A stretch of 46,113 bases of DNA from Chiloscyllium plagiosum (lineage: Eukaryota), in assembly GCF_004010195.1 (NCBI RefSeq), contig NC_057717.1:105524742-105570854 (forward strand), in the 5' to 3' direction. Of the stretch, positions 8,334 through 44,651 are shown piece after piece. Made by a program: the position numbers and the translations under genes. The number at the start of each line of letters is the position of its first letter. Positions within the stretch are counted from its first letter, which is position 1. The notes under the pieces are model-generated. The model was not told the DNA's origin. It worked only from the letters and a program-made list of their open reading frames with translations, and did not search any database.

Positions 8334-8363
8334 TCATTCAAAAGACATCAAGTTCAGGGGAGG
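8334..8363 (-). CDS. RALGPS-like terminal coding exon: PPLNLMSFE*
   Basis: Acceptor atttattgcag|CCT CCC CTG AAC TTG ATG TCT TTT GAA TGA; matches the recalled RALGPS1/2 C-termini VPANLMSFE and VPTNLMTFE. Confidence 0.92.
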   Translation of the reverse strand, partial: PPLNLMSFE

Positions 8364-11300
8364 CTGCAATAAATATTAATTAGTGCAAAATAAAATCGGG
8401 TTCTGAATCAGACAAGGTCAACGAGAGAAAGAAACCCCCAGAGAGATGGGAGGAAGGGGAGGCTGGATTGAATTGATTTCACAGCTTTATCTGAAATGGG
8501 ATAAATGTGAGGGAGTTTGACAGAGACGCTGCTGTATGCCCCTGGGGCGAAGATTCCTTCCAGTTAATAACCTGCTCTTAACAGATCCTGCACCAACTAT
8601 GGAGATCAACTAATTGTTCAATAAACATTCATCAACTGAGGTTACACAAGCCTCAGTATAGCAACAGACAGAGTGCTACACGGCCGCAGGGTCAGTATGG
8701 ATATGGGTATCATTGGCTGGAGCAGCATTTATTGCCTGTCCCTAGTTTCCCCTCGAGATGGTGACGGTGAGTTGTCTTGTTCACCTGCTGTAGTCCGTGT
8801 GCTGGAGGTACAACCACAGACTTGCTAAGGAGGGAGTTCCTGCATTCTGACCCAGCGACACTGAAGGAACGGCAGCATATTTCCAAGTCAGGATGGTGAG
8901 TGGCTCGGAGAGGAACTTGCAGATGGTGGTGTTACCATGTATCTGCTGCCCCTGTCCCTTCAGATGGAAATGGTCATGGGTTTGGAAGGTGCTGTCTGAG
9001 GGTCTTTGGTGAATTTCTGCAGTACATCTTGAAGATAGCACACATTGCTGCTACCAAGCGTCAGTGCTGGAGGGAGTGGATGTGGTGCCAAATCAAGCAG
9101 GCTGCTTTGTCCAGAGTGGTGTTGAGCTATTAGGGCTACACTCATCCAAACAAGTGGGGAGTATTCTATCACACTCCTGACTTGGGCCTTGTAGACAGAA
9201 TCATAGAATCCCTATAGTGTGGAAGAGGCCATTCGGCCTATTGAGACCACCCTGATCCTCCAAACAGTATCCCATCCATACGCACCCCAATATAACCCTG
9301 CATTTCCCATGGCCAATCCACCTAACCTGCACATTTTTGGACTGAGGGGGGGGGGAAGCAGAGCACCCGGAGGAAACCCATGCTGACACGGGGAGAATAT
9401 TCAAACTCCACACAGACAGTCGCCCGAGGGTGGAATCGAACCCGGGTCCCCCAGCGCTGTGAGGCACAGCTGAGGCACCATATCACCTCAGATGGTGAGT
9501 TACTCGCTCCTAGCCTCTGACCTGCTTTGTAGCCTGTGTGTTTATATGTTGAGTACAGTCCAGTTTCCAGTCAATGATAACTCCCAGGATGTTGAATCTG
9601 GAAGATTCAATGACAGTAACGCCATTGAAGGTCGAGAGCTGGTGATTAGACTGTCTCTTTTTGGAGATGGTCATAGCCTGGCATTTGTGTGGTGTGAATG
9701 TGACTTGTCAACCCAAGCCTGGATACTGTCCGGATCTTGCTGCATCTTTGCAGAGAAGCATGGACTGCTGCAGTACCTCAGGAGTGGTGAATGGTGGTGA
9801 ACATTGTACCATCCCCATTTCTGACCTTACCATAGGGAACAGTCATTGATGAAGCAGCTAGAGATGGTTGAGCCTAGGACGCTACCCTGAGGAACTCATA
9901 TAGAGACGGCCTGGAGCTGAGATGACTGATCTCCAACAACCACAGCCATCTTCCTACGTGTCAGGTATGACTCCAACCAGTGGAAAGTTTTGCTAGGGTT
10001 CTGTGATGTCACACTCAGTCAGACGCAGCCTTGATGTCCAGGGCTGTCCCTCTCCACTCCCCTCTGGGATTTGGCTCTTCTGTCCACGTTAGAACCAAGG
10101 CTGTAATAGGGTCAGCGCCGAGGGAGCGCCGCGCTGTCGGAGGGTCAGACACAATAGGTGGAGGGAGAAATGTGACACCTATCTGATCACTAGAGGCGTA
10201 GCAGTCCTCACTGTAGAGGGCTGGATGAACTAAATGCTCCATCAGGGAAACAGGCTTGTCTCCAAATAAGTTTGTCCTTGATTGGGTCACACTTACCTGG
10301 TTCCTGTTTCTCTCACAGGCCTTGCTTAAGTGTTTGACCCACAGTGTTGCATTCAGTCTGCTCCCTGCGTGGAATCGATAACAATGCCCTGCTTGAAAAA
10401 CAGAGGGAGAGTTGGCAAAGTTCCACCATCTCAACAGGAAAGGCCAGACTAATACCATCCCTTTACTTCAGACATGTCGGCCTCTCTCACAAACCAGGGT
10501 CACATCTGATTCCAATCCTGCTGCTCTCCATAAGCCCAACCCATCCCTTTCAGGACCATCACTCCTGCCCAAGCAACAGCTCACTGGATAGCTCTCTCAG
10601 TAAAGGAGGCAGAGAGTACAGAAGTGAAACAAAGAATTATAAAGCGAACCATGTTCCTTTAGTGAAGGGGGGGTGTGGTGGGGAACATGCTCATTAACTG
10701 TTCCCCCTCAGGAATTCTTTACAACGTTACTGAAGTGAACAGCAGATCAGCACAGGGAGTGTACCCTGGTCCTGGGAAACTCCGCAAGCTACAGCAACTT
10801 AACAGTGTTGTGAAGAACATGCTCAGTAAAGTCCTGTCGATCTACCCAATGAAGAACATTACCAGTTACTGTACACTGCAATGTTCTGTGGTCTGCCTAA
10901 CTTTTCCTCCACTCCTCCTTTCCCACCATCTCCATCAACCTGGGCGGCATGGTAGCTCAGTGGTTAGCTACAAAGGCAGTTCCTGAGGTAAGGACAGTGT
11001 AAACTCACCGTGCTCAGAGTCTGAGAGCTGGAAAACATCAACATCTGGATCTTCCATCAGAAATGGCATCCAACCAACAAGACACACTCTCTTACACCAG
11101 CTTGACTTAAACTGCTCCAAAAAAGAAACCTCACAAATCATTATCTGCAACAACTGGACAGAAACAGTTAAATTCAGCTCCAACCTGACAACTCTGTCCC
11201 TGTAGCTCAAAAATATTCCCCAAAATGGACTGTACAGTAATGAGGAAGAGGGGAGGAGAAAGGGTCAGGACCCTTTCACTAAAGAGTTATTTAGCCCAAA

Positions 11301-14300
11301 GGAGGGAGGGACAGCAGGAGCACAGACTCATTAGAATATCCAGCACTAAAAGGGTTAACCCACTGGGTTACGTTGGATAAACCTGATCTGTATCCCCGAG
11401 TTTACGAGGTTGAGAGGTGACCCCATCGAAATGTTTGACTTAAAGCATTAAAATGGGTGAGTGTCAGAAAAACCACTTGGTGCGGGATTGGGCTGATTTG
11501 GTCTGTTTCCCAGGATTACAGTTGGAGCTCAGAGGGGAAGCTTTCCGTGTTTACATTCTACAGTCCGTCTCTCTCCCCTCCCCCCACCCCCGTGGGACTG
11601 TCTGTTCTTTCCAAGTCAAGACGTGTGGTGCTGGATCATCCAAGGTGCGAGTGAGTCGACGTTTCGGGCATAAGCCCTTCATCAGGAATGCTCTCCTGAA
11701 TGTTCTTTCCAGTTTGTATCTTCCTCACATTCCAATCACTTGGAACCATCAACATCCTTTCTCCCCCAGCCCTCCACCAACTCTGCATCCTCCCCAGTAT
11801 AAACGCTGTCCCCTCTACACCTCACTCCAGCTCTGAATTTGAATCATGTGGACCCAAAACGAGAGTGTCTCTCTCCCCTTCTCCCCCCCTCCCCCCCCCC
11901 GGATTCTCCCCTTCTCCCCCCGCCCCCCCCCCCACCCCCACCCCACCGTGCCTCCCCTCCCCTCACAGATGGCCCCTTCTTCCTGCAGGTGCTCCCCAAC
12001 ATGTGTTTTCAGTCACAGCCACATGCCCTGATCAAATAAGTAAACCCCTTTCCCAATGTTTTTTTTAAACCATACTGACCTGGTTCCTTTCAGTCGATGT
12101 CAGTGACTTGGCTCCATAGTAAAACAGCTGACCTTCAGAGAGTACGACCCAATAGGTAGTCCACAGGGAGACCTGGGGACAGACAGACAACAGAGTCTCC
12201 AGTTTAGACATTCCTTCTCCAACATCACCGACCACCTAGTCCCACAATCTGTTCTCACAGGCTTCCTGCGACACACTGACCTCTCTCCGGATCCCGCAGG
12301 TCAGTTGTCAGTTAGCGAGATGGCCGATTCCTGCAGTCCCTTGGTTCAGGGCTGTATGGAGAGGATACATGGAGAGATGGTGGGGTGTGTGTGTGGGTGT
12401 ACTTATGTCTGCCTGTCAGTCTCTGTGTGTCCGTGTTGGGGGGCTACATACATTTGACCCACCAGTTTCCCCATTGGTCTCACCAGTCCCTTGTCCCTAA
12501 GTGCCATGTGTGTAATAAGAGAGCAGGTTTCTCAACTACATGGGCACGGTCAAGTGCAGGCTGACTCAATGGAAGCTGGGTCCTGGAAGGTCTGTTCACT
12601 CTAAGTGAACCATCTGTCCCCTCCCACATCACTAAAGGTGGTCATTATCACATTGCTCATTACGGGAGAGACTCACATCAGCACCTCCTTCACTGGCTGG
12701 GAAATGCTTTTGGGGGGGGGGGGGGGGGGGGCGGTGGGGTGCCCTGACAGTGACAGGCGCTACAGAAATGCAGTTCTTGTGGTTGTTTCCTTATTACGGT
12801 GGAATCAGGCCAGTTGGAGGTTTAGTGTTTCACCCCTGATTGGCGATCAGTCTCAGCACAAAATATAAAAATACAAGAACATTCTTCAACAGAAGCTGGG
12901 AGCTCCCACAAAAATTCAAAAACCGATTAGAACCAACCGCTCCATTACAGAACTTATAAACATCTGAATCTCTCCGTTAACACCAGGAGATGAAATCAGA
13001 AAGCAAACACAAGTCGTTCCTCATTGTTCCCATTACCGTTGGCTTCTTGCTGCCTTTCAGGATGGTTTTCCTTCTCAACGCACTTTGGATAGTTGCTGCC
13101 CCTCCATCAGAATGCAGTGCGGCTCTAGGTACAGCAACATTGGGATCGATTAGTCCAGGAACGTGAATTTCCACAACCCCTCATGTTCAATCTGCATGTT
13201 CAAACACCCCCCCCCATCAATTCACCTTTCTGTGCTGAGGGAGACACTCCAGCACTAGCACGTTACTGACGTGGGGAGAGAAAGGGAACCCCCCGAGGAT
13301 TCTCGGCCAGCTCTCCTCCCAAGATCAGATACAGCCCTGCAGCTCGGCCAGGGTCGGCAGGGAGTCTGTGCGATTCTCAGGCAACACACTCACAGGAGAT
13401 CGGGTTCAGGTTCCTCTCAAACATGTGTAGGGTCAGGAGGATCGGTCATGGGAAATGTGGGCTGATGGGAAATGGGTGGGTGCAGACTCGATGGGCCGAA
13501 TGGCCACTCTGTATGGATTCTATACCCCGACCTGTATATACACATGCTTCCAGACAGTGTTAGAGAGGGGGTGGGGGTTTCAGTACCTGATGGTATGTGA
13601 CAGGGTGAGGGGGTTTCAGTACCTGACGGCATGTGAGGGAGCGGGGCAGGGGGGTTTTCAGTACCTGNNNNNNNNNNNNNNNNNNNNNNNNNNNNNNNNN
13701 NNNNNNNNNNNNNNNNNNNNNNNNNNNNNNNNNNNNNNNNNNNNNNNNNNNNNNNNNNNNNNNNNNNNNNNNNNNNNNNNNNNNNNNNNNNNNNNNNNNN
13801 NNNNNNNNNNNNNNNNNNNNNNNNNNNNNNNNNNNNNNNNNNNNNNNNNNNNNNNNNNNNNNNNNNNNNNNNNNNNNNNNNNNNNNNNNNNNNNNNNNNN
13901 NNNNNNNNNNNNNNNNNNNNNNNNNNNNNNNNNNNNNNNNNNNNNNNNNNNNNGGACGGTGCGGCAGCTGCCGCACAGGGTGGGGTGAGGGGGGGGTACG
14001 TACCTCGGCAGGTTCCTGAGGGGGTTCCACATTGACGTTGTCACACGGCCCAGGGAGCAGTAAAACCCAGTGTTACTATGGAAACAGAATAAAACAAGTC
14101 CCAATCAACGCCTGCACAGTGGGGGGGGGGGGGGAGCTCACAGGAACAGCAGGGATTTGTAACCAGCTGCCTCAGCCCCATGACCCTACTACCACTCAGA
14201 GTAAACCCGAACATTTAAAACATTTCCATTATTGATTTAGTATTGATTTCCTTTCAGAGCGTTTCACACTCAGCAGCAGAGGGAGTTGGATGTGGATAAC

Positions 14301-17300
14301 TGAAGGTAGGAGGACAGTGCAGACAGAGATATGAATAAAGTGGACAACGTCCCCGGTTTTATTAAAAGGACAGAGAGTAGGAGTGCAGAGAGGTGATGTG
14401 GACCTTGTACAAGGCGTGTGTTAGACCTCAGCTGGTGTATTATGTCCACAACGTCCAGAAAGGATCCAAACCCATTGGAGAAGGTGCAGCAGAGATTTCC
14501 AGGGATATTAAACTTCCGCGGTGGGGACAGAGGGGTCGGGACTGCTCACCTGGGAGAGAGGAGGCAGTCAGTCAGAGATTTGATTGAGAGTTTTCAGAAG
14601 TATGAGGGAGAGTTGGATAGAGTAGATCAGGAGAAGCTGGTCCCACTCTTAAAAAGTTTGAGAACAAGAGATTTAAAATGATATGCAAAAGCAGCAAACA
14701 CAACATGACCAAAACCAACCTAGCCACGACGCAAGTGAGTTGGGTCGAGAATATGCTGCCCGAGAGTGGGGTCAAGACTGGTTCAGTCGAGATATTGAGA
14801 AGGGAGTTCAGTTGTTACCTGGACAGTGATGATATTGAAGTTTAACAGGAGAATGGCACCAAGAAAATCTTTTGGAGAGATGACATAGACAGGATGGGCA
14901 GATCGATCTCCTCCTACACCATTAAACATGCACCTGTCTGTGAGATTACCCCCTCACCCTCCCACACTCCTGGTAGTTTGCATCTGGCTTGTGTTCATCT
15001 CTTCATGCATGGGCAGGGGGCAGTCCAAATATTCACTTTGCTTTGCTTAAAGAGAGTTTAACTTTGAGTTAAGTTGCTCACCGTTCAAAAGATGAACAAG
15101 GGTTTCTCTCTCGAACATCACAGCTTTCTGCCTGAGGGGCTGGGAACAAGAAATTAAAATGAATCCATGAAACCCCAACCAATTGCCTCCACAATCCCCT
15201 CACATTGCCCCAAACTCTGGCCCAGTTAGTGAGCAGGTAGACTCCATGAGGTCCAGGCAAGTGATGAGGCATGAAAACTCTGTGGGTGAAATGTAGATAC
15301 TCTGCTGCTGTGGGGCTGACAAACATCGTTGGGTTCTTGGTGAAGGATGCGGGGACACAGAAACCAGAGTCTGCTATACAGCATCAGAATGTGCAGCCAC
15401 TGAAGGCACTGGACTTGGAGAGAAAGGTAGCAGGTGTTTGTGGTGTTATGAAGTTTAAGAGAGAATGCTGTTCTGCACAGAGCTTACAAGCACCTGTCAT
15501 AATGACTAGCTAGCAGTCTCAGAGTGTACTGGAAAATTGAAAATATGTAACATCTGGCTGTGAAATGGATACCTGAATTGGTTGCTGTTGACAACAATTC
15601 AAATTTAGCCAGTTTAAATTATGCCCCAGGATACTAAAACCCAATTGAGTGCGAATTTATTGTTTTGCCATCATCGAACCAATAAGATGATCAGATTTTA
15701 GGAGCATTAAGAAAGGCAGGCAGTTTGAAAGTCAGACAGAGCAACTGCCAATAAATGAATGAGAGAGTGAGACAGACAGACAGACAGAACCTCTGTATCA
15801 AAGGTACTTTTTTCATATGAAACATATTCACACTGAAAAGAAAGCCTTCGACCCAGGGAGATCGTCAGCCAGAGGAAGGCAGACACTGAATGATTTGAAA
15901 TTAAGCTGATGTTATTTTAATAAGTTTTTATTGGAACAGTATATTGGTACAGAGTTGGAGGTAGATAGTAAGCAGCTAAGAGAAAGGGGGGATTAGATTT
16001 GTGAATTGTTGTTGTTTAATGATCACCTTTTAGAGTTAAAGAATAAATTAATATTTTTCTTTAAGTAGTGGAATTTGAGAGCTCTCCTTTATTCATACTT
16101 TAACAGATTACGAGGTGAGCTGAGCTTTTCTGGGGGTTCGGTTTAATTAACAGTGGGGTTCACCACCTTGCCACAACAGTGGACAGTAAGATCCCACAAT
16201 GTGATAATGTCCGAGACCATCTGAAAGTGATAATGGCCAACAACCAAAAATAAAAATCACAGACCCCCACACCAGGAGGTTACAGGAACAAGTTCAAAAG
16301 CCTGGAGCACATTACATGAATCAAACCCCAGTCCCTTCCATCCCCAACCCCAGGGCAGCTCAGCTGGGCTCTACAGGGTCAGGGGGAATGATCCTTCAGG
16401 TGAGATGTTAAACTAAGGTTGTGGTCACAGATTTGAGAGGAGCAGGAGAGGAGATCTCTCCCTGGGGTCCTGCTAAACATTTCTTCCTCAACCAACAGCA
16501 ACTGAGCAGACAGTCCACCCTGGATCTTGCTGTGCGTACACTGGCTGCTGCATTTCCTGAGCTACAACAGCGCCTGCACCTCATTGGCTTTGGGACGTGG
16601 AGAGATTGCTCAGATCTAAATAGGGTTTCTCAAACTGCCTCCTGGTGTGACCCCCTCCCCCATCTCCATGTTGCAGACCGAGAGAACCCAGAAAGTTAAC
16701 AGCGTTCTGCTGAGCATCTTGAAAGAAGTGTTTAAACGGCAGGGATTCTTAAAAATCTTCTCACGGCCTCAAAGGCCGAACCTTCGAGGAGCCACATTGA
16801 CCACCAGAGAGAGAATGGTGAGCAGGTAAAGGACCACCCACCATTGGTGTTGTGTCAGAGAACCCCAACAGCAGCTCACAACAACACCTCCCCCACAGGC
16901 GTACCCGTTTCCCCCCCCCCACAGGGGTACCAAAGCCAAACCCCAAGTATCAGAAAGAGACCAAATCCCATTGGGTGGTAAAAGGTGCCGTTTCTGCTGG
17001 TGGGCGGTGTTTGACCTGGAGAGCGCTCATGGGTAGACTCACCCTTTGTCTGCTTCACCCACAACAAATCACCTTCCATCTCACTGTCGTCCAGGAGATA
17101 CCGAGGCAACGAGCCAGGGAAGGTGGCACTCCTCTGGGTGCTGGCATTGGTCCGTCCAGCTCTGCCAATATCCAATAGTAGATGGTGGGGGGGTGGGGTG
17201 GGGAGGCAGAGAGAGAAACAGTGCTGCAGATTAAGTGCCTTCAATCTGTAACCCAAAACCATCCCCTCACCCTTCTCTCCAATCATGTGGATCCAAACCC

Positions 17301-35300: not shown

Positions 35301-38300
35301 ATTTGCCAGCACTTGGCCCACATCTCTCTAAAGGACAAAGTGAGGTCTGCAGCTGCTGGAGACTAGAGTTGAGACTGTGGTGCTGGAAAAGTACAGCAGG
35401 TCAGACAGAATCCGAGGAGCAGGAGAGTCGGCGTTTCGGGCAAAAGCCCTTCATCAGGGATCTCCCAGGAATCTGATGCAAGGTTTTTGCCCAAAACATC
35501 GATTCTCCTGCTCCTCGGATGCATCCTGACCTACTGTGCTTTTCCAGCACCACAGTCTCGACCCATATCCCTCTAAACCCTTCCTATTCATATACCCATC
35601 CAGATGCCTTTTAAATGTTGTAATTGTAGCAGCCTCCACTTCCTCTGGTAGCTCATTCCACACACGCACCACCCTCTGTGTGTACACAAAAGTTGCCCCT
35701 CAGGCCCAACAGAAACGGAGGAATTGCTTTTGTCTTTGGTCTGGAAATCTCCTGCACAGACAGCAGTGGAGGTTGGTCATTAAATATAATCAGCACAGAG
35801 TTAGACAGATTTTTGATTGACCAGAGAATGTAGTCAGGCAGGAAATGGCCACAATGAGATCAGCTATATTCCTCACGATTCTTCGAGACTGTGACCTAAT
35901 GAGCTAAAGCACAGCCACACAGAATAGAGAAACATAGCCCCTGTCAGCACTGGTTAGTCCAGGACAGTGTGTCAGCCTGACCTGGGTCAGATTAGCTGGG
36001 CAAAAGTGAGGTCTGCAGATGCTGGAATCAGAGTCGAGAGGGTGGTGCTGGTAAAGCACAGCAGGTCAGGCAGCATCCGGGGAGCAGGAGAATCGACGTT
36101 TTGTACAAAAGCCTCATTACCGATAGAAGGGCTTATGCCTGAAACATCGATTCTCCTGCTCCTGTCTGTCTGTCTCTCAGCCTTCTCTGGATGTACTCAC
36201 TGACCCAGTCTCAACAGCTTTCAGTGGCAAAGAACTCCACAGATTGACTGAAGAAATTTCTCCCCATCGGTTTTAAATGAGTGACCCTTCATTTGGAGGT
36301 TGTGGTTTGCTGATTTGAAACTCTCCCACAAAAGCAAATTACCTCAAACAGACACTAACTCCACTTCTAACCCATTTAATCCACCCTCAACATGTCAGAA
36401 TTAGGAAGGCAATGCTTATAGATACAAGGTTTATTTTCATATTTTTTGTCATTTACATAAATGATTTTGATGTGAGCATAGCAGGTATAGTTAGTAAGTT
36501 TGCAGGTGGAGGTGTAGTGGACAGCGAAGAGGGTTACCTCAGATTACAACAGGATCTGGACCAGATGGGCCAATGGGCTGAGAAGTGGCAGATGGAGTTT
36601 AATTCAGATAAACACAAGGTGCGACATTTTGGGAAAGCAAGTCTTAGCAGGACTTATACACTTCATGGTAAGGTCCGAGGGAGCGCTGCTGAACACAGAG
36701 ACCTTGGAGTGCAGGTTCATAGCTCCTTGAAAGTGGAGTCACAGGTAGATAGGATAGTGAAGGCGGCGTTTGGTATGCTTTCTTTTATTGGTCAGAGTAT
36801 TGAGTACAGGAGTTGGGAGGTCATGTTGCGGCTGTACAGGACATTGGTTAGGCCACTGTTGGAATATTGTGTGCAATTCTGGTCTCCTTCCTATCGGAAA
36901 GATGTTGTGAAACTTGAAAGGGCTCAGAAAAGATTTACAAGGATGTTGCCAGGGTTGGAGGGTCTGAGCTATAGGGAGAGGCTGAACAGGCTGGGGCTGT
37001 TTTCCCTGGAGTGTCGGAGGCTAAAGGGTGACCTTATTGAGGTTTACAAAATTATGAGGGGCATGGATAGGATAAATAGGCAAAGTCTTTTCCCTGGGGT
37101 CGGGGAGTCCAGAACTAGAGAGGTTTAGGGTGAGAGGGGAAAGATATAAAAGAGACCTATGGGGTAACTGTTTCACATAGAGGGTGGTAGGTGTATGGAA
37201 TGAGCTGCCAGAGGAAGTGGTGGAGGCTGGTACAATTACAACATTTAAGAGGCATTGGGATGGGTATTTGAATAGGAAGGGTTTGGAAGGATATGTGCCG
37301 GGTGCTGGCATGTGGGACTAGATTGAGGTTGGGATATCTGGTCAGCATGGACGGGTTGGACCGAAGGGTTTGTGTCTGTGCTGTACATCTCTATGACTCA
37401 AATTTCTGACATCACTTGCTCCCTCGATGCCCAAAGTTGTTGTACAGAATGGACATACTGTGGTCAGGGACGAGGAGGACAATATCCTGGGAATGAGCAT
37501 CGGAATAACATACGGATAGGGCCAGATGGGAGTGGTTCTGTGGGGTTACTGGGCGATTCTGTTTTGACCAGGTCCCTGGAAGGATTGTCTCCAGGTTTTG
37601 GAAGATGGTCACCGATCCAGTGGGATCTACTTGATCAAGCCAACCACCAATCGCCTGATGCAGGTCTGGTGTGACCAGCAGGAGGGTCCCAGCGGCTGGA
37701 CCGTCATCCAGAGACGGCAAGATGGTTCGGTCAATTTCTTCAGGACCTGGGAGAGTTACAAGGTGAGTGAAGGTGGGGCATCAGCTGCCTAGCATTCCGC
37801 CCTCAGTCTGTGTCCACCTCCCTCACACATACATTTCCCATAACAGGCCCAGGCCTGGGCTGCTTCGGGGCCCAGAGTATAAAGGGCACCCTCAGTTACT
37901 GGGCACTACACACCTATCCTCGGACCTCCGGCCCACACCAGAGAAGATACTGGAGAAACTCAGCAGGTTAGTGGAGACAGAAGTTGAAACTTTATTGCTG
38001 GAACAGCACAGCAGGTCAGGCAGCATCCAGGGAACAGGAGATTCGACGTTTCGGGCACAGGCCCTTCTTCAGGAATGAGCAGAGAGTGTTCAGCAGGAGA
38101 AGATAAAAGGTAGGGAGGAGGGACTTGGAGGAGGGAAGTTGGAAATGTGATAGGTGGAAAGAGGTCAAGGTGAGGGTGATAGGTCGGAGTAGGATGGAGG
38201 CGGAGAGGTCAAGAAGAAGACTGCAGGTCAGGAAGGCGGCTGTGTTCCTACACCAACATTTCTGTCCCAGATCTGTTGCAGTGTTCCTTAACGCAAGTTC

Positions 38301-41300
38301 AAAGAACAACACTTCATTTTCCACTTGGGGATTCTGTTTCTGTTCTTCTCATTCCTGAAGAAGGGCCTGTGCCCGAAACGTCGAATCTCCTGTTCCCTGG
38401 ATGCTGCCTGACCTGCTGTGCTGTTCCAGCAATAAAGTTTCAACTTTGATCTCCAGCATCTGCAGACCTCACTTTCTCCTAGTGGAGACAGAAACAGAGT
38501 TAACATTTCAGGCTCAGATGTACATGAACAGGTAAGGTCTGGAAGGATATGGGCTGGGGGCAGGAAGGTGGGACGAGTTTAGTTTGGGATGATGGTCAGC
38601 ATAGACTGGTTGGGCTGAAGGGTCTGTTTCTGTGCTGGATGACTCTTCTTACGAAACAAGTCATTGGATTCAAAACGTTCACTCTGTTTCTGTCTGCACA
38701 GATGCTGCCACACCTGCTGAGTTTCTATTGCATTCTGGGGTTTTTTCGGGGGAATTTATGTTGTCAGGATCAGGGGTAGGTAGTGGGCAGGTTTGGGAGA
38801 AGGTTGACTCAAAGATATTCCAGTGCCCAAGCCTGAACGGGCAACGGACAGTCACAGTAATCCAGAGACCGTGGATCGGAATCTCACAACAGGGAAATTC
38901 ACAGTTAGATTAATCAAACCACCTGGCCTAACAAACCAATCCACCCTCCTTGGTAGATTCTTAACCGCGCTCTGAAAGAGCCTTGCAAGTCACTCAGGAG
39001 TGGGCAGACTCATTAAAGAGTAAAATGAATGCAACTCTACACAGGGACTGGCTCAAAGCAGTAACCTGTGACATGTTTACAGGAAAGCCAAACATCCGTG
39101 TTGGTGGTAAATACAGAATATTCTCCTCACCGTCCCACCCCTCACCTCTATCACCAGCGTAAAGACCACCCTTCCCCATCTGCTCGCGTTCTGACAAAGA
39201 GTCACCAAACACCCTCTCTCCACAGTTGCTGCCAGACGTGCAGAGTTTCTCCAGCGCTTGTTTCAATTTTAACGTACTTGCCTTTCAAAGCAGATAGTCT
39301 TTCCACTGTATTTCCCACACGTACAAGGGAACGCTATCAATAAACACTGCCTTGATTGTTATCTGTAGCAAGGTTTTGGCAACATTGACGGTGAATACTG
39401 GCTGGGCTTGGAGAACATCTACTGGCTGACCAATCAGGATAACTACAAGCTGCGGATAGTAATGGAAGATTGGCAAGGCAGGAGAGTGTTTGCAGAGTAC
39501 GACGACTTCCGGGTGGAAGCAGAGGGAGACTTCTACAGGCTGAGGTTAGGCCATTATCATGGGAACGCTGGAGATTCCTTATCTTGGCACAACGGCAAGC
39601 AGTTCACCACCCTGGACAGAGATCGGGATCTGTACTTAGGTAGGACAGTTTCCTTGGGGTTACAGTGCAATGGTCAGTCAGGTTAATGAAGGATTATCCT
39701 CACTGCTCTCTCTCTCTGTTTCCTTCCAAGGTAACTGTGCCCACTACCAGAAAGGAGGCTGGTGGTATTACACGTGTGCCCACTCAAACCTGAATGGAGT
39801 GTGGTATAAAGGAGGGCACTATCGCAGCAAGTACCAGGATGGAGTTTATTGGGCAGAATTCCGTGGGGGTGCGTACTCCTTGAAGAGAGTGGTGATGATG
39901 ATACGCCCAAACCAGATCCTGCTGTAAACCCCACTCTCTCAGCACTTGTGTCCCACTGCCCATGTTATCACCTCTTCATACTATATTACACATTGTGTTA
40001 CAGTCACCATTGTATCCACAACATTACAAACAACTGAACTACCTACCTAGAGTATACTATGGCTTGAGGAGTTTAAAGCTGTTTCTTCTGTTTAGCCTGA
40101 ACCAGAGAACTGTCCTGAGGACTAAGTTAAAAATCATGCAACACCAGGTTAGAGTCCAACAGGTTTAATTGGAAGCACTAGCTTTCGGAGCGCTGCTCCT
40201 TCATCAGGTGATTGTGGAGAACACGATTTAAGACACAGAAGTGTGATGTAACTGAAACGTTTGCTATAAATTCTGTGTCTTAAATCGTGTCCTTCACAAC
40301 CACCTGATGAAGGAGCGTCGCTCCGAAAGCTAGTGCTTCCAATTAAACCTGCTGGACGATAACCTAGGGTTGTGAGATTTTTAACTTTATCCACACCAAT
40401 CCAACGCCGGCATCTCCAAGTCCTGAGGACAGTAATGGTTAAAGGACAGAGCTCACAACAGTCACCAAATTCCATCCCAGCCTCCCATCTCCCACTGAGA
40501 TCCTCACACTGACAAGCAACACACCATTCTAATATCGCTCATCATTTATTACATTTTATAATCAGCTGCAGTGTCTTTTCAGTGAATTATAGAAATAGAG
40601 ATTTCAGGAGAAGCAACCACCGTCTTGGAAACATCAAGATAATTAGAAGCCAACACGCTATTGGCAGAGTTACGCAGTAACTGTAAGGTGGCTACAGGAA
40701 GTGAACAGGACAGGCCTCATGCAGTTCAATTAAACACAGGCCCCAAAGCAGAGGACTGCTCCATAGTTCCACACTGCCCGGGGTCACCAAGCTGTGGGCT
40801 CTACATGGGAGGGGGGGTACCGGGGTTCTACGAGTGGCGCATTTAACCCTGCAGGCAGATTTGCTACACCCTACCTCAGGTATCTGATGGGGAGACTGGG
40901 TGCCCAATAACAGAATGTGTCTTTAGATTAGATTCCCTACAGTGTGGAAACAGGCCCTTCAGCCCAAAGAGTCCACACTGACCCTCCGAAGAGTAACCCA
41001 CCCAGACCCATTCCCCTACTCTATGTTTACCCCTGACTAATGCCACTAACACTACGGGGCAATTTAGCATGGCCAATTCACCTGACCTGCATATCTTTCT
41101 GGACTGTGGGAGGAAACCGGAGCACCCGGAGGAAACCCACGCAGACACGGGGACAATGTGCAAATTCCACACAGTCACCCGAGGCTGGAATCGAACCCGG
41201 TCCCTGACACTGTGAGGTAGCAGTACTAACCACTGAGCCACCAAACTGCCCACATCTTGTTCTCTATGCCAACATCCTACACCTCAAAACCATCCCCCTC

Positions 41301-44300
41301 CTTCCAGAAAAAAGGTGAACAGATCATTAGGGTAAACATTTAAAGTTCAATACTTTGGGATGTCGATCGTCAGTTGAGGCAATTATCTGAAATTAATTAG
41401 TGGCCCCCATATCCACAAGCACCCACTCCCTCCACCACCCTGACACTCAGCAGCAGCAGTGTGTACCACCTACAAGATGTACTGCAGAAACTCACCCAAG
41501 ACCCTCAGACAGCACCTTCCAAACCCACAGCCACATCCAACTAGAGAACAGGGGCAGCAGACACATGGGAACACCACCCCTGCAAGTTCCCCTCCAACCC
41601 ACTCACCATCCTGACTTGGAAATATATCATCGTTCCTTGACTGTCACTGGGTGAGAATCCTGGAATTCCCTCCCTAAGGGTTTTGTGGGTCAACCGATAA
41701 CACATGGACTGCCTTCTCAAAGGCATCTCGGCCATATGTGCTGGCTCAGGCAGTGATGGCCGCATCCCAAGAGTGAATTTTAAAAAAACAATTGGTGACT
41801 TAGGAAGCCATTCCACCCCTTTGCCTGTTCTGGCATCCCATGAGATTATAGCTAATGGATAACCTAACACTGTTTACCTGTCTTTAATTCCACCCCCCTC
41901 AACACCGTCCCCTAAAAGAAACACCTTCAGCAATCTGAATTCTGATCTTTCTAACCGAGCCCCTTACTGTGAAGGGCAGGTGGAGATTTACATAGCCTGC
42001 GTCTCAGGAAGGGTTACAAGTTATCACTAATTATTGGTCTGGGGGGTTTGATTTTTAAAATGCTGCTTTCAACCCAGCTATCCCACTCCCAAAACCTGTC
42101 TGGAGGAGCTGGCTACTGTACTGACCCAGTCAGCTCTTTCCATTCTATTCAACGCTGGGACACCACCTCTTCATCTTCTATACTTGGAGATATAAGCCCA
42201 GTCTCTGCAAATTCTCTTCAAGTTAACTCTTTCAGCTTTAGTATTACTGCAGTCAGAGTAATAGTCGACTCCAGTGTCCCTGAAACATTTCTCTAGTTCC
42301 CATTAAATAAAATCCATGTCATTCACTCCAATCCCTCCCTCAGGGAGCGGGTTCCACATTCTCACTCCCTTCAAGTGGCTTTCTTGGGAAATATTATACT
42401 GACAGCCTCGAATTCTGCTCTTTCCCACAAGAGGGATATTTTCACACAATCAAAATCTTTAATAATTTTAAAAGGGCCTCAATTAGGTCACGTTCTGTTT
42501 TCAAGAGAAAAGACAGTTAGCCGCTCTCCTGATGTATTCACCTAAGTTTCTGGTTTCACATTTAGAAACCCCCCCTGGGCACCCTCTCCAGTGCCTGGAG
42601 GTAAAAGTGATGACCAGAACCACACTCAGTACTGTCTGCAGTCCTTTCATTCCTCTACTCCACACTTCGCCCACATCATTGACTGTACACCCCTCAGTCT
42701 GACCGGGCTCAGACACAGCAACGCTGGCCCTTAAACCCTTGTATCTCCAGAACAGGCCAGCAGGAGGCAATCACAATTCAGTTCGGATTAGTTGATCATT
42801 TCCAATCCGACCCTCTCCAAGACATTAATCACCATCATTCTGTGTGGGAACCCATCATCAGGATAATGCAACTCCCTCCGTTTGATCATCTACTCACTGC
42901 TTTAAACAAGACATGGCCCGATTTCCTAGAAAACTAACACGGAATTAGATGCATTCTCATCCTAGATATTAATCTGTTAACTCTTTATGTTTGTTTACGC
43001 TTGTGTGCTAGAAAACACTGTAAATACCAGAACAAATAAACCACTTTCTGCTGTAATATACTTTGGAGTTTGGTAATGAATCAGTGAGGTATTGGAGAAT
43101 CTCAGTATGTGTCCGAGTCAACACAGAAATCCCATTTGGGTAAAAGCAGAATGATGTGACGGTGAAACTGCTGCAGCCCTGAATTACTCAGCATCAGAGG
43201 GAGAGAGCTGGGTTTTCATTCAACCCCAGGATAGTGGGAATTAAACTGCAGAAAGAAGGTTGGGCTGTTGGTGAGGAGTGACAGTAAATACTAAAACCAC
43301 AGGACAAACCTGCCACGGGTCACAGCATCACATTCACTAACCACCATCAGTCAAAGGCCTTTCGACAGTTCTCTCTGCATGCAAATTACACAATACACCT
43401 CTCACAGGCAACATCAAACCTCCTTCAAACACAATGCTGACTTCTAACTTGTACTGATGTGCAGTTTGACTGATGTCCCTTGTAACAGCTTGTATTGGGA
43501 ACATACAAGGCTGCTGGTTGGAGCTGATGTGAAGGAGGTGTGGTCAGTGTTGTCTATGAAGTGAGGACCCACACACAATCAGACACATGGTTGCTCCAAT
43601 TCATTCCACACATCGCAAACTAAACCATGTGGCCAACATTACATTGCAGAAACAATAAACTAACACATAGGAATCGTGGATAAGAGAATGTTTCGTTAAT
43701 AGCAACCTCCTGCTAACAGTTTCAAAACTGGCATCAGGCCCAGGGGACTTATCTATTTTCACCTTTTCCAGGATTTCCAACACCTCTTCTCTACATACCT
43801 CTACATTTATTGGACTCATTGAAGGTTTTCAGACTTCAGTAACATTGATGGAGTAAAGTTCAGACGAAGTACCATTTCCAGAATAAAACTGCTCACCAGT
43901 GTTCTACCCCAAGGATCCTGATGCATTACATGTTCACTGTAATTCAAATTTTCCCCAGACAACTCTCCTCTTTGCAGAGATTAGAGGTGGATCTGTGCAG
44001 TTGTGTAGGAATGAGGCAGAGAGCAACAACCTGAAAAATCAGGCTCACTCTGTTCCCAGAGTTAATTCAGCCTGGTTATTTCAAACATGGATCACACAAA
44101 CACATCCTCCTACCTCAAAACAGCAGACGTTTTATTGTTTCTAACACACCGTGCATTAACCAGATGAGGCAGAATGGACAAACACCCATCAGTCTGGAGC
44201 TGATTTCTCCACCGCGAGAATTCTGATCCACAAGGGACAAAGCAAAAGGCAGGAAACCATCAATGAGGGTCACATCAGACACTCCCCTTCCCCCCAGTCC

Positions 44301-44651
44301 CCGGGCTCAGACTGGGGCAGACTCTCCCCCCAGTCCCCGGGCTCAGACTGGGGGAGACTCTCCCCCCAGTCCCCGGGCTCAGACTGGGGGAGACTCTCCC
44401 CCTCATTCCCCGGGCTCAGACTCCAGTCAATGGGACAGCAGGCACCAATACTGAAATATGGGAAGTTTGTAGCAGATCCTGAACATGCAGCCGCCCTGTG
44501 AGAGATAGAGGAGATTAAACTCACCTAAATATGGAATACATGGGGTCGCTTTCAAACTGCAAATATAATTTCGGAGCATTTCATAGTTATCGCCGTTGGA
44601 CGTCAGGGTCTGCAGCTTCTCAAACGTAGCCTTATCTTTCCTGCTCAACAG
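8334..44651 (-). CDS. RALGPS-family Ral guanine nucleotide exchange factor (RALGPS2-like, divergent), 5'-partial; 13 coding exons in window
   Basis: Hand-spliced exons 44651-44525, 21208-21071, 19791-19701, 18971-18907, 18033-17928, 17161-17043, 15139-15082, 14075-14004, 13124-13037, 12172-12080, 11111-11009, 10388-10297, 8363-8334 total 1182 nt, stay in frame and are all GT-AG. Motifs [43 protein letters not shown] domain and terminal NLMSFE* are colinear with RALGPS1/2 as recalled. Confidence 0.92.
8700..10110 (-). mobile_element. Degenerate LINE (CR1/L2-group) 3' portion, interrupted by a SINE
   Basis: [12 protein letters not shown]-terminal motif; same 3' end sequence as 41400-41790 on the other strand; aataaatgctg tail near 8725. 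Confidence 0.7.
9198..9485 (-). mobile_element. V-SINE (HE1-like)
   Basis: Same V-domain and B-box (gggttcgattcc) as the other copies. Confidence 0.8.
10297..10388 (-). CDS. RALGPS-like exon: (G)[30 protein letters not shown] (PH C-terminal helix)
   Basis: Acceptor ttttcaagcag|GG, donor CCAG|gtaagt; 92 nt; Y.F.AG.R.NA.LW.KHL..AC motif. Confidence 0.95.
11009..11111 (-). CDS. RALGPS-like exon: [34 protein letters not shown](G) (PH domain)
   Basis: Acceptor ttttggagcag|TTT, donor CACG|gtgagt; 103 nt; FKS...K.V...GWM....DP..D.FQL motif. Confidence 0.93.
11654..11689 (-). ncRNA. Family A hammerhead motif in a short Penelope-like fragment, sense to the RALGPS-like intron
   Basis: Minus strand reads AUUC-CUGAUGA-A-GGGC UUAU GCCC-GAAA-CG-UC-GACU. 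Confidence 0.6.
12080..12172 (-). CDS. RALGPS-like exon: [31 protein letters not shown] (PH domain)
   Basis: Acceptor tgtccccag|GTC, donor CCAG|gtcagt; 93 nt, phase 0-0; WT.YW..L...L.YY.AKSL motif. Missed by the ORF track. Confidence 0.95.
13037..13124 (-). CDS. RALGPS-like exon: [29 protein letters not shown] (PH domain start)
   Basis: Acceptor gtacctag|A, donor AACG|gtaatg; 88 nt; TIQ..LRRKT.LK..KKPT motif. Confidence 0.9.
13560..13667. repeat. Minisatellite (ggggtttcagtacctga core) running into an N gap
   Basis: Three copies at ~38-45 nt spacing before the gap at 13668. Confidence 0.7.
13668..13953. other. Assembly gap (286 N)
   Basis: N run. Confidence 1.
14004..14075 (-). CDS. RALGPS-like exon: [23 protein letters not shown](R)
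   Basis: Acceptor tgtttccatag|T, donor CGAG|gtacgt; 72 nt, symmetric phase 2-2; Y.SLG.VT resembles RALGPS2 LYHSLGPVT. Confidence 0.8.
14330..14920 (+). mobile_element. Degenerate CR1 3' fragment
   Basis: [24 protein letters not shown] and LDRVD motifs. Confidence 0.7.
15082..15139 (-). CDS. RALGPS-like linker exon: (A)[18 protein letters not shown](R)
   Basis: Acceptor ttcttgttcccag|CC, donor AACG|gtgagc; 58 nt, phase 1 to 2; ends in FER like the corresponding RALGPS2 segment. Confidence 0.75.
15495..16178 (+). mobile_element. Possible solo LTR
   Basis: Begins TGT and ends ACA, with internal AATAAA at ~16042 and composition distinct from its flanks; no target-site duplication found. Confidence 0.35.
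16390..16630 (+). mobile_element. DeuSINE-like fragment
   Basis: gagatgttaaac...cctcaaccaaca...atcttgctgtgcg...cattggctttgggacgt resembles the recalled Deu-domain consensus. Confidence 0.55.
17043..17161 (-). CDS. RALGPS-like linker exon: [39 protein letters not shown]
   Basis: Long pyrimidine tract then ttggcag|A, donor AAGG|gtgagt; 119 nt; SATFP and R.LLDDS motifs conserved in RALGPS1/2. Confidence 0.88.
17928..18033 (-). CDS. RALGPS-like linker exon: (G)[34 protein letters not shown](K)
   Basis: Acceptor tcttttcctcag|GC, donor TACAA|gtgagt; 106 nt, phase 1 to 2; [10 protein letters not shown] aligns with RALGPS2 GHRKCHSLGY (recalled). Confidence 0.8.
18070..18725 (+). mobile_element. Rex1/Babar-like LINE 3' end interrupted by a V-SINE (18386-18638, minus)
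   Basis: Degenerate [10 protein letters not shown] / [13 protein letters not shown] Rex1 C-terminal text and tail; V-SINE head ggcacggtggctcagtggttagc on minus. Confidence 0.55.
18907..18971 (-). CDS. RALGPS-like exon: (R)[21 protein letters not shown](G)
   Basis: Acceptor tctttctacag|A, donor CAAG|gtgaat; 65 nt; LSL.IEP is the motif ending the CDC25 domain. Confidence 0.9.
19209..19500 (-). mobile_element. V-SINE (HE1-like)
   Basis: V-domain and B-box gggttcgattcc. Confidence 0.8.
19701..19791 (-). CDS. RALGPS-like exon: (D)[29 protein letters not shown](R)
   Basis: Acceptor gtttgcag|AC, donor ACAG|gttagt; 91 nt; matches [26 protein letters not shown]. Confidence 0.95.
20835..21040. mobile_element. 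Small inverted family B Penelope-like element
   Basis: Arms ~20834-20915 and ~20937-21013 are inverted; the minus-strand hammerhead has GAAAGCCU in place of GAAAGCUA. Confidence 0.7.
21071..21208 (-). CDS. RALGPS-like exon: (G)[45 protein letters not shown]
   Basis: Acceptor tctctggcag|GG, donor TACG|gtaata; 138 nt, phase 1 to 1; continues the [14 protein letters not shown] motif. Missed by the ORF track. Confidence 0.95.
21640..21930 (+). mobile_element. tRNA-derived SINE of a second family (fragment also at ~20080-20220)
   Basis: B-box-like ggtcaaatccc, followed by aaaacccatctggttcactaat...agggaaggaaa...ctggtctggcct. Confidence 0.6.
22510..23900 (-). mobile_element. CR1 LINE 3' portion with internal 124-bp tandem duplication
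   Basis: [46 protein letters not shown]; 22720-22843 is repeated from 22844. Confidence 0.9.
24770..24950. repeat. Degenerate (GT/GA)n low-complexity tract; (CA)n-like tract also at 19843-19910
   Basis: Visible dinucleotide runs. Confidence 0.7.
25920..26220 (+). mobile_element. DeuSINE-like element (other fragments at ~21345-21510 plus and ~24404-24500 minus)
   Basis: ctgaggg...tgtaaaag.tccca...cctggccaatatctatccctcaaccaacatca...tgtttgtggcagcttgc resembles the Deu-domain consensus. Confidence 0.65.
27828..28030. mobile_element. Inverted family A Penelope-like pair (degenerate hammerheads)
   Basis: 27859-27935 is inverted relative to ~27950-28027. Confidence 0.75.
28150..29110 (-). mobile_element. 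Old degenerate CR1 fragment
   Basis: NDL.EG.ESML..FADDTK and LQRDLD RT motifs. Confidence 0.65.
29959..30458. other. Assembly gap (500 N)
   Basis: N run. Confidence 1.
31099..31740 (+). CDS. ANGPTL6: ANGPTL first coding exon: signal peptide [37 protein letters not shown], coiled coil
   Basis: Acceptor tgtgtcgcag|G at 31063; ATG at 31099 (alternative at 31108); donor CCAG|gtaaaa; EVDG..NEVK.LRKE...MN.RVTQLY.QLLHEII motif. Confidence 0.93.
31099..39927 (+). CDS. ANGPTL6: Angiopoietin-like protein (ANGPTL1/2/6 clade, best fit ANGPTL6), 497 aa, 5 coding exons
   Basis: Exons 31099-31740, 32908-33100, 37572-37762, 39369-39639, 39731-39927 total 1494 nt in frame. Signal peptide, CTYTFIVP motif, coiled coil and fibrinogen-related domain are present. 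[19 protein letters not shown] and a split linker exon favour ANGPTL6 over ANGPTL1/2 (recalled). The family call is near certain; the paralog call is moderate. Confidence 0.8.
31985..32205. repeat. GC-rich minisatellite (gtcaccccgagaccctgacccccc core; ~35 and ~21 nt units)
   Basis: About eight tandem core copies in ANGPTL intron. Confidence 0.9.
32908..33100 (+). CDS. ANGPTL6: ANGPTL linker exon: [12 protein letters not shown]...GNEILKDQ...TTKTA(G)
   Basis: Acceptor tttatcaacag|GCA, donor GCCG|gtgagt; 193 nt, phase 0 to 1, needed for frame; PPLV.V.P and NEI..D motifs. Confidence 0.88.
35335..35560. mobile_element. Inverted family A Penelope-like pair inserted in a CR1 3' tail (~35213-35700); similar pair at ~36000-36165
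   Basis: Inverted arms flanked by near-identical ccacatctctctaaa / ccatatccctctaaa. Confidence 0.75.
36430..37400 (+). mobile_element. CR1 LINE 3' end, relatively young
   Basis: Long open ORF2 fragment: [50 protein letters not shown]. Confidence 0.93.
37572..37762 (+). CDS. ANGPTL6: ANGPTL fibrinogen domain exon: (G)PWKDC...[23 protein letters not shown]
   Basis: Acceptor gttttgaccag|GT, donor CAAG|gtgagt; 191 nt; FReD signature [16 protein letters not shown]. Confidence 0.96.
38041..38076 (-). ncRNA. Minimal type I hammerhead ribozyme motif (family A), intact
   Basis: Exact reverse complement of 38351-38386. Confidence 0.72.
38351..38386 (+). ncRNA. Minimal type I hammerhead ribozyme motif (family A), intact
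   Basis: AUUC-CUGAAGA-A-GGGC CUGU GCCC-GAAA-CG-UC-GAAU: perfect stem I and palindromic ACGU; predicted cut after 38382. Confidence 0.72.
39369..39639 (+). CDS. ANGPTL6: ANGPTL fibrinogen domain exon: [18 protein letters not shown]...[25 protein letters not shown](G)
   Basis: Acceptor atctgtag|CAA, donor TTAG|gtagga; 271 nt. Confidence 0.96.
39731..39927 (+). CDS. ANGPTL6: ANGPTL last coding exon: (G)[12 protein letters not shown]...[10 protein letters not shown]
   Basis: Acceptor tttccttccaag|GT after a 91-nt intron; [13 protein letters not shown] and [11 protein letters not shown] motifs; TAA ends at 39927. Confidence 0.96.
40176..40210 (-). ncRNA. Minimal hammerhead motif (family B), intact
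   Basis: Minus strand reads CAC-CUGAUGA-A-GGAGC AGC GCUCC-GAAA-GC-UA-GUG. Confidence 0.7.
40301..40335 (+). ncRNA. Minimal hammerhead motif (family B), intact
   Basis: CAC-CUGAUGA-A-GGAGC GUC GCUCC-GAAA-GC-UA-GUG; predicted cut after 40332. Confidence 0.7.
40923..41253 (-). mobile_element. V-SINE (HE1-like), near full length
   Basis: A-box gtggctcagtggttag, B-box gggttcgattcc, V-domain, tail gggaatctaatctaa. Confidence 0.87.
41400..41790 (+). mobile_element. LINE 3' end (same family as 8700-9200)
   Basis: Shared cagcaccttccaaaccca...ctcaccatcctgacttggaaatat sequence. Confidence 0.7.
44278..44425. repeat. 36-bp minisatellite, about 4 copies
   Basis: cagtccccgggctcagact starts at 44295, 44331, 44367 and (variant) ~44404. 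Confidence 0.9.
44525..44651 (-). CDS. RALGPS-like exon: [42 protein letters not shown](G), CDC25 domain
   Basis: Acceptor ttggttatag|CTG, donor TTAG|gtgagt; 127 nt, phase 0 to 1; PCIPYLG is a RasGEF/CDC25 signature. Confidence 0.95.

Follow-up and report, generated by a model that had tools for sequence, protein, structure and literature searches.

A probable third RALGPS/ANGPTL gene pair in elasmobranchs, with ANGPTL6 nested antisense in an intron of its host

A 46,113-nt stretch of vertebrate DNA from Chiloscyllium plagiosum (the window hereafter, meaning the whole stretch analysed) probably carries the 3' two thirds of a third RALGPS-family gene, here called RALGPS3 or R3, with a complete orthologue of ANGPTL6 nested antisense in one of its introns. 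We place the probability of this reading at roughly 0.78. Both genes are already predicted in RefSeq, and what is new is their recognition as a third RALGPS/ANGPTL pair.

In human, ANGPTL1 lies antisense in an intron of RALGPS2, and ANGPTL2 likewise in one of RALGPS1 (PMC6371847); the papers on these two pairs do not number the intron concerned. A survey of Ras regulators reports two RALGPS genes in the vertebrates it studied and one in invertebrates (PMC3141262), and angptl6-eif3g-dnmt1 is reported as a conserved neighbourhood (PMC6976628). A 2017 study of ANGPTL evolution places Angptl1, Angptl2 and Angptl6 in one cluster and notes that elephant shark and little skate still lacked an identified angptl6 orthologue; the word "ralgps" does not occur in its main text (PMC5237311). 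Our literature search found no paper naming a third RALGPS, nor, judged by title and abstract, any on RALGPS as an ohnolog or in shark.

Results

A RALGPS-family host encloses an ANGPTL gene

We located the exons of the host gene by tblastn of P0121, a 550-aa RasGEF+PH protein of C. punctatum, and then refined the splice junctions. The host lies on the minus strand in 13 exons, from 44651 down to 8334, and the part within the window corresponds to residues 157-550 of P0121. Its splice sites are canonical (AG acceptors at 13/13 exons, GT at 12/12 internal donors), there are no stops or frameshifts, and the product of 394 aa is identical to P0121 at 387 of 394 positions (~98%) and to four RefSeq-predicted C. 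plagiosum isoforms (P0424, P0425, P0426, P0429) at 393 of 393. The first host exon in the window, 44525..44651 (aa 157-199), forms the end of the RasGEF core up to ...PCIPYL-G, and has an AG/GT boundary pattern and junction residues that agree with P0121 at 25/25 places. It is 127 nt long, and the host intron that follows, 21209..44524 on the minus strand, is therefore phase 1. This intron of 23,316 nt splits ...PCIPYL-G-IYLSD..., and by exon bounds and phase it encloses the entire ANGPTL gene on the other strand.

The nested gene has five coding exons on the plus strand (31099..39927), all bounded by AG/GT. Its product of 497 aa is identical throughout (497/497) to the RefSeq-predicted C. plagiosum protein P0432, and at 487 of 497 positions (~98%) to P0005 of C. 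punctatum, on which Pfam places a fibrinogen-like domain (Fibrinogen_C, PF00147) at aa 282-492 (E 7.7e-71). Reading the nested protein by eye, we find a hydrophobic N-terminus, taken as a putative signal peptide, and a heptad-rich region. Intron 1 is phase 0 and lies within the linker. An earlier note on this stretch had described an ANGPTL gene lying antisense in the phase-1 intron that splits PCIPYL-G-IYLSD, with five coding exons and a phase-0 intron in the linker; its coordinates, strands, phases and protein lengths were all right, and the AG/GT-bounded exon model confirms the exon count and the linker intron.

The nested gene groups with ANGPTL6

In database searches, elasmobranchs have two genes of this kind, one of the window type (491-497 aa) and one named "ANGPTL2b" (482-489 aa). 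We built a careful maximum-likelihood (ML) tree of 38 rows, in which 11 rows are elasmobranch proteins of the window type, six are chondrichthyan ANGPTL2, and Ambystoma ANGPTL6 is the sole ANGPTL6 from outside the elasmobranchs. The 11 window-type rows and Ambystoma ANGPTL6 form one clade with support 100/100. The six chondrichthyan ANGPTL2 rows, which include separate genes of the same elasmobranch species, cluster separately, among bony-vertebrate ANGPTL2. A tree constrained to unite the shark rows with chondrichthyan ANGPTL2 while excluding Ambystoma ANGPTL6 is worse by 53.9 log-likelihood units, and the approximately unbiased (AU) test rejects it (p=5.8e-7).

Independently of the tree, we made profiles of the shark ANGPTL6-type group (shark-A6) and the shark ANGPTL2 group (shark-A2) and searched PDB with each. 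For the human ANGPTL6 chain, the shark-A6 profile gives 371.5 bits and the shark-A2 profile 352.4 bits; for the human ANGPTL2 chain, the values are 474.1 and 526.7 bits, respectively. In these profile scores the pattern is reciprocal, as is expected of orthologues. The ANGPTL6 identity proposed in the earlier note is thus borne out by the clade with Ambystoma, the AU test and the profiles.

Of the four motifs that the note had listed as ANGPTL6-type, two tell the ANGPTL6 rows from those of ANGPTL2 in the 38-row alignment, namely YDxF by its D and SLSWHN by its S; the nested gene has both residues in common with human ANGPTL6, and they are absent in 25/25 ANGPTL2 rows. The other two, DRDRD and GGAYSL, are ruled out as markers, being present in chondrichthyan ANGPTL2 too. 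Cartilaginous-fish ANGPTL2 (P0031, P0032, P0067, P0070, P0085, P0088) shares these two motifs and the fibrinogen domain with the nested gene, but it falls in the other clade, lies on contigs of other sizes in the same species, and carries YASF, FTWHN and GRYHG in place of the nested gene's YDxF, SLSWHN and G[HYQ]Y. Tetrapod ANGPTL6 (AGF) is like the nested gene in its fibrinogen-like domain, in its clade (through Ambystoma ANGPTL6) and, in human, in the YDxF and SLSWHN states. The elasmobranch protein differs from human ANGPTL6 in being much more conserved and closer to ANGPTL2 (81-83% in exon 4), and the elasmobranch gene differs from that of tetrapods in still lying inside a RALGPS host. To our knowledge, human ANGPTL6 at 19p13 has no such host.

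The host is a RALGPS-type gene, probably outside RALGPS1 and RALGPS2

On P0121, Pfam places a RasGEF domain (PF00617) at aa 48-215 (E 1.6e-53) and a PH domain (PF00169) at aa 439-535 (28.5 bits, with a cut-off of 25.1), and it lists no match to the REM domain (RasGEF_N, PF00618); RasGEF and PH without REM is the RALGPS architecture. When P0121 was searched against 5.8 billion proteins, 8 of the 120 matches listed were of the host type, all of them elasmobranch. Seven had 57-80% identity (Rhincodon, Heptranchias, S. canicula, Pristis, Leucoraja, Hemitrygon and the query's own cluster), and the eighth, from Hypanus, had 51% over its full length. The remaining 112 were RALGPS2-type, from across the jawed vertebrates, at ~47-54% identity, and the same elasmobranchs, including C. 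plagiosum (P0186), have separate RALGPS2 genes. Among 1.84 billion representatives at 50% identity, the best 150 matches held only three of the host type (P0122, P0124, P0276), all from sharks, namely Rhincodon, S. canicula and a Mustelus fragment. These representatives merge RALGPS1 with RALGPS2, and RALGPS1 is thus represented only by mammalian isoforms and teleost fragments. Counting C. plagiosum, C. punctatum and Hemiscyllium from a cluster look-up, the host type is seen in 11 elasmobranch species, and no chimaera, ray-finned fish or tetrapod has it among the matches listed. An ESM Atlas look-up returned only general RalGPS2 clusters for the host, and a search with a 54-aa host exon yielded only 2 proteins.

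For the host we built a careful ML tree of the guanine nucleotide exchange factor (GEF) domain with 39 rows and 273 columns, using oyster and crinoid as outgroups; a Serrasalmus fragment with a branch of 1.01 in a quick tree was left out. R3 sits within the vertebrate RALGPS group (100/99) as a clade of its own (100/99). In this tree it lies outside both gnathostome RALGPS2 (100/98; 19 rows from chimaera, sharks, rays and bony vertebrates) and the RALGPS1 of mammals and teleosts (97/96). The best tree joins R3, RALGPS2 and one hagfish protein (82/91). An elasmobranch-specific duplicate of RALGPS2, modelled as R3 with the elasmobranch RALGPS2 clade, is rejected (AU p=0.023). Over 22 columns that tell RALGPS1 from RALGPS2, R3 has 3 of 7 RALGPS2-derived states and 0 of 1 RALGPS1-derived states.

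The earlier note had named a grouping of the two proteins within RALGPS2/ANGPTL1 or RALGPS1/ANGPTL2, with no other copy of that pair in the genome, as the outcome that would speak against a third copy; the best tree places R3 outside both RALGPS clades, and the same species have RALGPS2 separately. Its proposal of a third RALGPS/ANGPTL copy kept in cartilaginous fish is supported by the trees and the ANGPTL6 passenger, with the narrower distribution that the host is seen in sharks and rays only. The note had also put the loss of the host in the mammalian lineage. This does not agree with the matches listed, in which no bony vertebrate has the host type, and the loss is therefore probably far older than mammals.

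The tree also contained rows of interest in their own right. Two RALGPS-like proteins come from the hagfish Eptatretus burgeri (P0256, P0279), one of which goes with lamprey, while the other is the long-branched protein that joins RALGPS2 and R3. A Xenopus laevis protein named "RalGPS1 isoform X1" (P0216) falls inside the RALGPS2 clade beside frog RALGPS2 (96/86); despite its name, this is probably not RALGPS1 but the second RALGPS2 homeologue of X. laevis.

Host and passenger are probably linked in other elasmobranchs

In the 9 species checked (C. punctatum, C. plagiosum, Hemiscyllium, Heptranchias, S. canicula, Mustelus, Pristis, Hemitrygon and Hypanus), the contig that carries the host matches in size the one that carries an ANGPTL6-type gene, with the nesting itself seen in the window DNA. 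In C. plagiosum, S. canicula, Pristis and Mustelus the two genes have consecutive RefSeq accessions, which under NCBI practice probably reflects neighbouring genes. An older C. punctatum assembly has the two with adjacent locus tags on one 136-kb scaffold. ANGPTL2b is on contigs of other sizes than the R3/ANGPTL6 pair in Heptranchias, Pristis and Hemitrygon. Database names are inconsistent for both genes: isoforms of one host gene are named both RalGPS1-like and RalGPS2-like, and the passenger is named ANGPTL6 in most elasmobranch species and ANGPTL2-like in some (P0121, P0424-P0429, P0124, P0434-P0438, P0005, P0432, P0433, P0010).

The host evolves fast, remains constrained and lacks a linker motif

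Between pairs of species, host-type proteins are 63-74% identical, whereas RALGPS2 of the same pairs is 96-98% identical, in line with the earlier remark that the host is far more diverged than is usual for this family. Within a species, R3 and RALGPS2 are ~52-59% identical. In the GEF domain, R3 sequences keep between 52/63 and 82/87 (83-94%) of the columns that do not vary across 29 other RALGPS rows, from oyster to mammals, and of the invariant PH or C-terminal columns they keep between 24/29 and 27/30 (7 full-length rows, the truncated Rhincodon model being left out). By these alignments, the host is still constrained despite its fast evolution.

The linker of R3 differs from that of RALGPS2 at a PPTPP segment, which we take to be the SH3-binding motif that gives the RALGPS family its name. 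All 8 R3 sequences that cover the linker are gapped there, while the segment reads [PQ]TPPS in the five RALGPS2 rows shown (four with PPTPPS and that of Mirounga with PQTPPS). The oyster outgroup likewise has no PPTPP motif.

Compared with RALGPS1 and RALGPS2, R3 is alike in its CDC25-type RasGEF without REM, its long linker, its C-terminal PH domain ending in ...NLMSFE, and its antisense intronic ANGPTL gene of the 1-2-6 group. It differs from RALGPS2, the host of ANGPTL1, and from RALGPS1, the host of ANGPTL2, in forming a separate clade found only in elasmobranchs among the rows seen, and in having ANGPTL6 as its passenger. The missing PPTPP segment and a far higher divergence between species further set it apart from RALGPS2.

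Some R3 gene models are odd at their ends. The Hemitrygon model P0127 (928 aa) is ~380 aa too long, and the Rhincodon model P0122 (465 aa) has no PH domain and ends in unrelated residues.

Exon organization and other features of the window

The remaining host exons, all on the minus strand, were placed by tblastn and splice refinement, with the three PH-domain exons placed by splice refinement and the Pfam match to PF00169 (aa 439-535 of P0121). Downstream of the large intron, the exon at 21071..21208, ending in ...FCEY, matches the CDC25 domain of human RalGPS1 (3qxl, E 7.3e-07), and it is followed by the exon at 19701..19791, ending in ...DNYRL. The linker is encoded at 18907..18971, 17928..18033, 17043..17161, 15082..15139 and 14004..14075; by alignment, the exon at 17928..18033 is the site of RALGPS2's PPTPP motif, which is absent here. 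The exon at 13037..13124 directly precedes the PH domain, which occupies 12080..12172, 11009..11111 and 10297..10391, and the last coding exon (8334..8363) ends in PPLNLMSFE and a stop.

For the nested gene on the plus strand, coding exon 1 (31099..31740) encodes the putative signal peptide, the N-terminal region and the heptad-rich region, and is followed by the phase-0 intron. Coding exon 2 (32908..33100) encodes the linker and exon 3 (37572..37762) the start of the fibrinogen-like domain, as placed by the model and Pfam. Exon 4 (39369..39639) carries the part of this domain with YDDF and SLSWHN, as seen in the alignment, and exon 5 (39731..39927) encodes its end and the stop.

The window contains two assembly gaps (N runs), at 13668-13953 and 29959-30458. 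The former falls within a host intron, and the latter ends ~640 bases ahead of the ANGPTL start codon, so that part of the likely promoter region is unread. Tandem arrays with a period of 36 bp and related lengths occur at 44289-44422 (in the host intron, ~100 bases from the exon at 44525-44651), at 31985-32206 (in ANGPTL intron 1) and at 13566-13667, where the array abuts the first gap. Retroelement remains are also present: a 188-aa frame at 1909-2475 on the minus strand matches reverse transcriptase (PF00078, E 2.1e-16). Two long frames, at 36319-37128 (plus strand, ANGPTL intron 2) and 22932-23300 (minus strand, large host intron), have an alike C-terminal motif by eye and no Pfam matches.

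Discussion

Several observations weigh against a third pair. The elasmobranch rows of the host tree are R3 and RALGPS2, with no chondrichthyan RALGPS1 among them, and the AU test does not reject a clade of R3 with RALGPS1 (p=0.16), as expected if R3 were a fast-evolving elasmobranch RALGPS1 orthologue. The R3 rows lie on long branches, and long-branch effects could push R3 out of its true clade. On the side of the passenger, exon 4 of the nested gene matches human ANGPTL2 (6y41) at 163 bits and human ANGPTL6 (6y43) at 120 bits, and the shark-A6 profile also scores human ANGPTL2 above human ANGPTL6. The ANGPTL tree has Ambystoma as its one ANGPTL6 from outside the elasmobranchs and no ANGPTL1 rows, its amphioxus outgroup has a branch length of 10 and gives no useful root, and the tree tool warned of long branches meeting.

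We consider it unlikely that the host is an elasmobranch RALGPS1 orthologue, with no third paralogue at all. The AU result for R3 with RALGPS1 is what such a history would give, no chondrichthyan RALGPS1 is among the matches listed, and NCBI calls several host-type proteins "RalGPS1-like". Yet the best 120 and best 150 matches held almost no RALGPS1 of any species, so a missing shark RALGPS1 is no evidence of absence, and both the best tree and the derived states place R3 nearer to RALGPS2. The nested gene, moreover, is ANGPTL6-type and not ANGPTL2-type, and the elasmobranch orthologues of ANGPTL2 are on contigs of other sizes. Because the host tree alone would also accommodate R3 as a fast-evolving RALGPS1, the third-paralogue reading leans on the nested gene being ANGPTL6. 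A duplication of RALGPS2/ANGPTL1 or RALGPS1/ANGPTL2 within the cartilaginous fishes, followed by quick divergence, is very improbable. R3 is nearest to RALGPS2 by score, its long branches could be misplaced, and it is seen in elasmobranchs only; against this, the tree test rejects R3 with elasmobranch RALGPS2, a gnathostome RALGPS2 clade that spans chimaera, sharks and bony vertebrates excludes R3, and the nested gene goes with tetrapod ANGPTL6, the lineage-specific alternative being rejected there as well. We give slightly less credence still to the host being a pseudogene in decay, or an artefact of gene annotation around ANGPTL6. Its fast evolution, a PH score barely over the Pfam cut-off, and the truncated Rhincodon and 928-aa Hemitrygon models are what decay or poor annotation might leave, but the frame is open over 13 exons with canonical acceptors and donors throughout, full-length RasGEF+PH models exist in sharks and rays, and most of the invariant GEF, PH and C-terminal columns are kept.

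On the reading of a third RALGPS/ANGPTL pair, the data suggest that the gene-within-gene arrangement predates the early vertebrate genome duplications. An ancestral single RALGPS gene would already have held an ANGPTL gene in an intron, and the early vertebrate genome duplications would have copied the two together, with three copies surviving as RALGPS2/ANGPTL1, RALGPS1/ANGPTL2 and RALGPS3/ANGPTL6. Elasmobranchs would have kept the third host, and bony vertebrates would have retained only the passenger, ANGPTL6. We take human RALGPS2/ANGPTL1 (1q25), RALGPS1/ANGPTL2 (9q33) and ANGPTL6 (19p13) to belong to the classical 1q/9q/19p/6p paralogy group, a placement that fits an origin in the early vertebrate genome duplications.

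In function, a CDC25-type RasGEF without REM, together with a C-terminal PH domain, leads us to expect that RALGPS3 should act as a membrane-recruited exchange factor for Ral GTPases. Since RALGPS3 does not have the proline-rich SH3-binding motif of RALGPS1/2, its adaptor coupling is probably lost or different. The putative leader, heptad-rich region and fibrinogen-like domain suggest that ANGPTL6 is a secreted protein, and it would be transcribed from its own promoter, opposite to the direction of the host. Taken together, one possible account, which we hold only tentatively, is that the nesting is older than the vertebrate genome duplications and that host and passenger were passed down together in three ohnologous copies. 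The third host would survive in elasmobranchs as a fast-evolving Ral exchange factor minus the SH3-adaptor motif, and the regulatory landscape of ANGPTL6 within its intron may be part of the reason why it was retained. In bony vertebrates this host would have decayed around ANGPTL6, and the release of the passenger may have accompanied the faster evolution of tetrapod ANGPTL6.

In the 2017 survey, cartilaginous fishes had no identified ANGPTL6 so far (PMC5237311). If the third-pair reading is true, the inconsistent database names of host and passenger would be fixed. A predicted Ral exchange factor with an altered adaptor region would be added to the two-gene vertebrate RALGPS family. The third pair would also be a clean example of nested genes that went through whole-genome duplication together, the host being lost later while its passenger survived, and it would allow mutual constraint between host and nested genes to be studied in a natural system.

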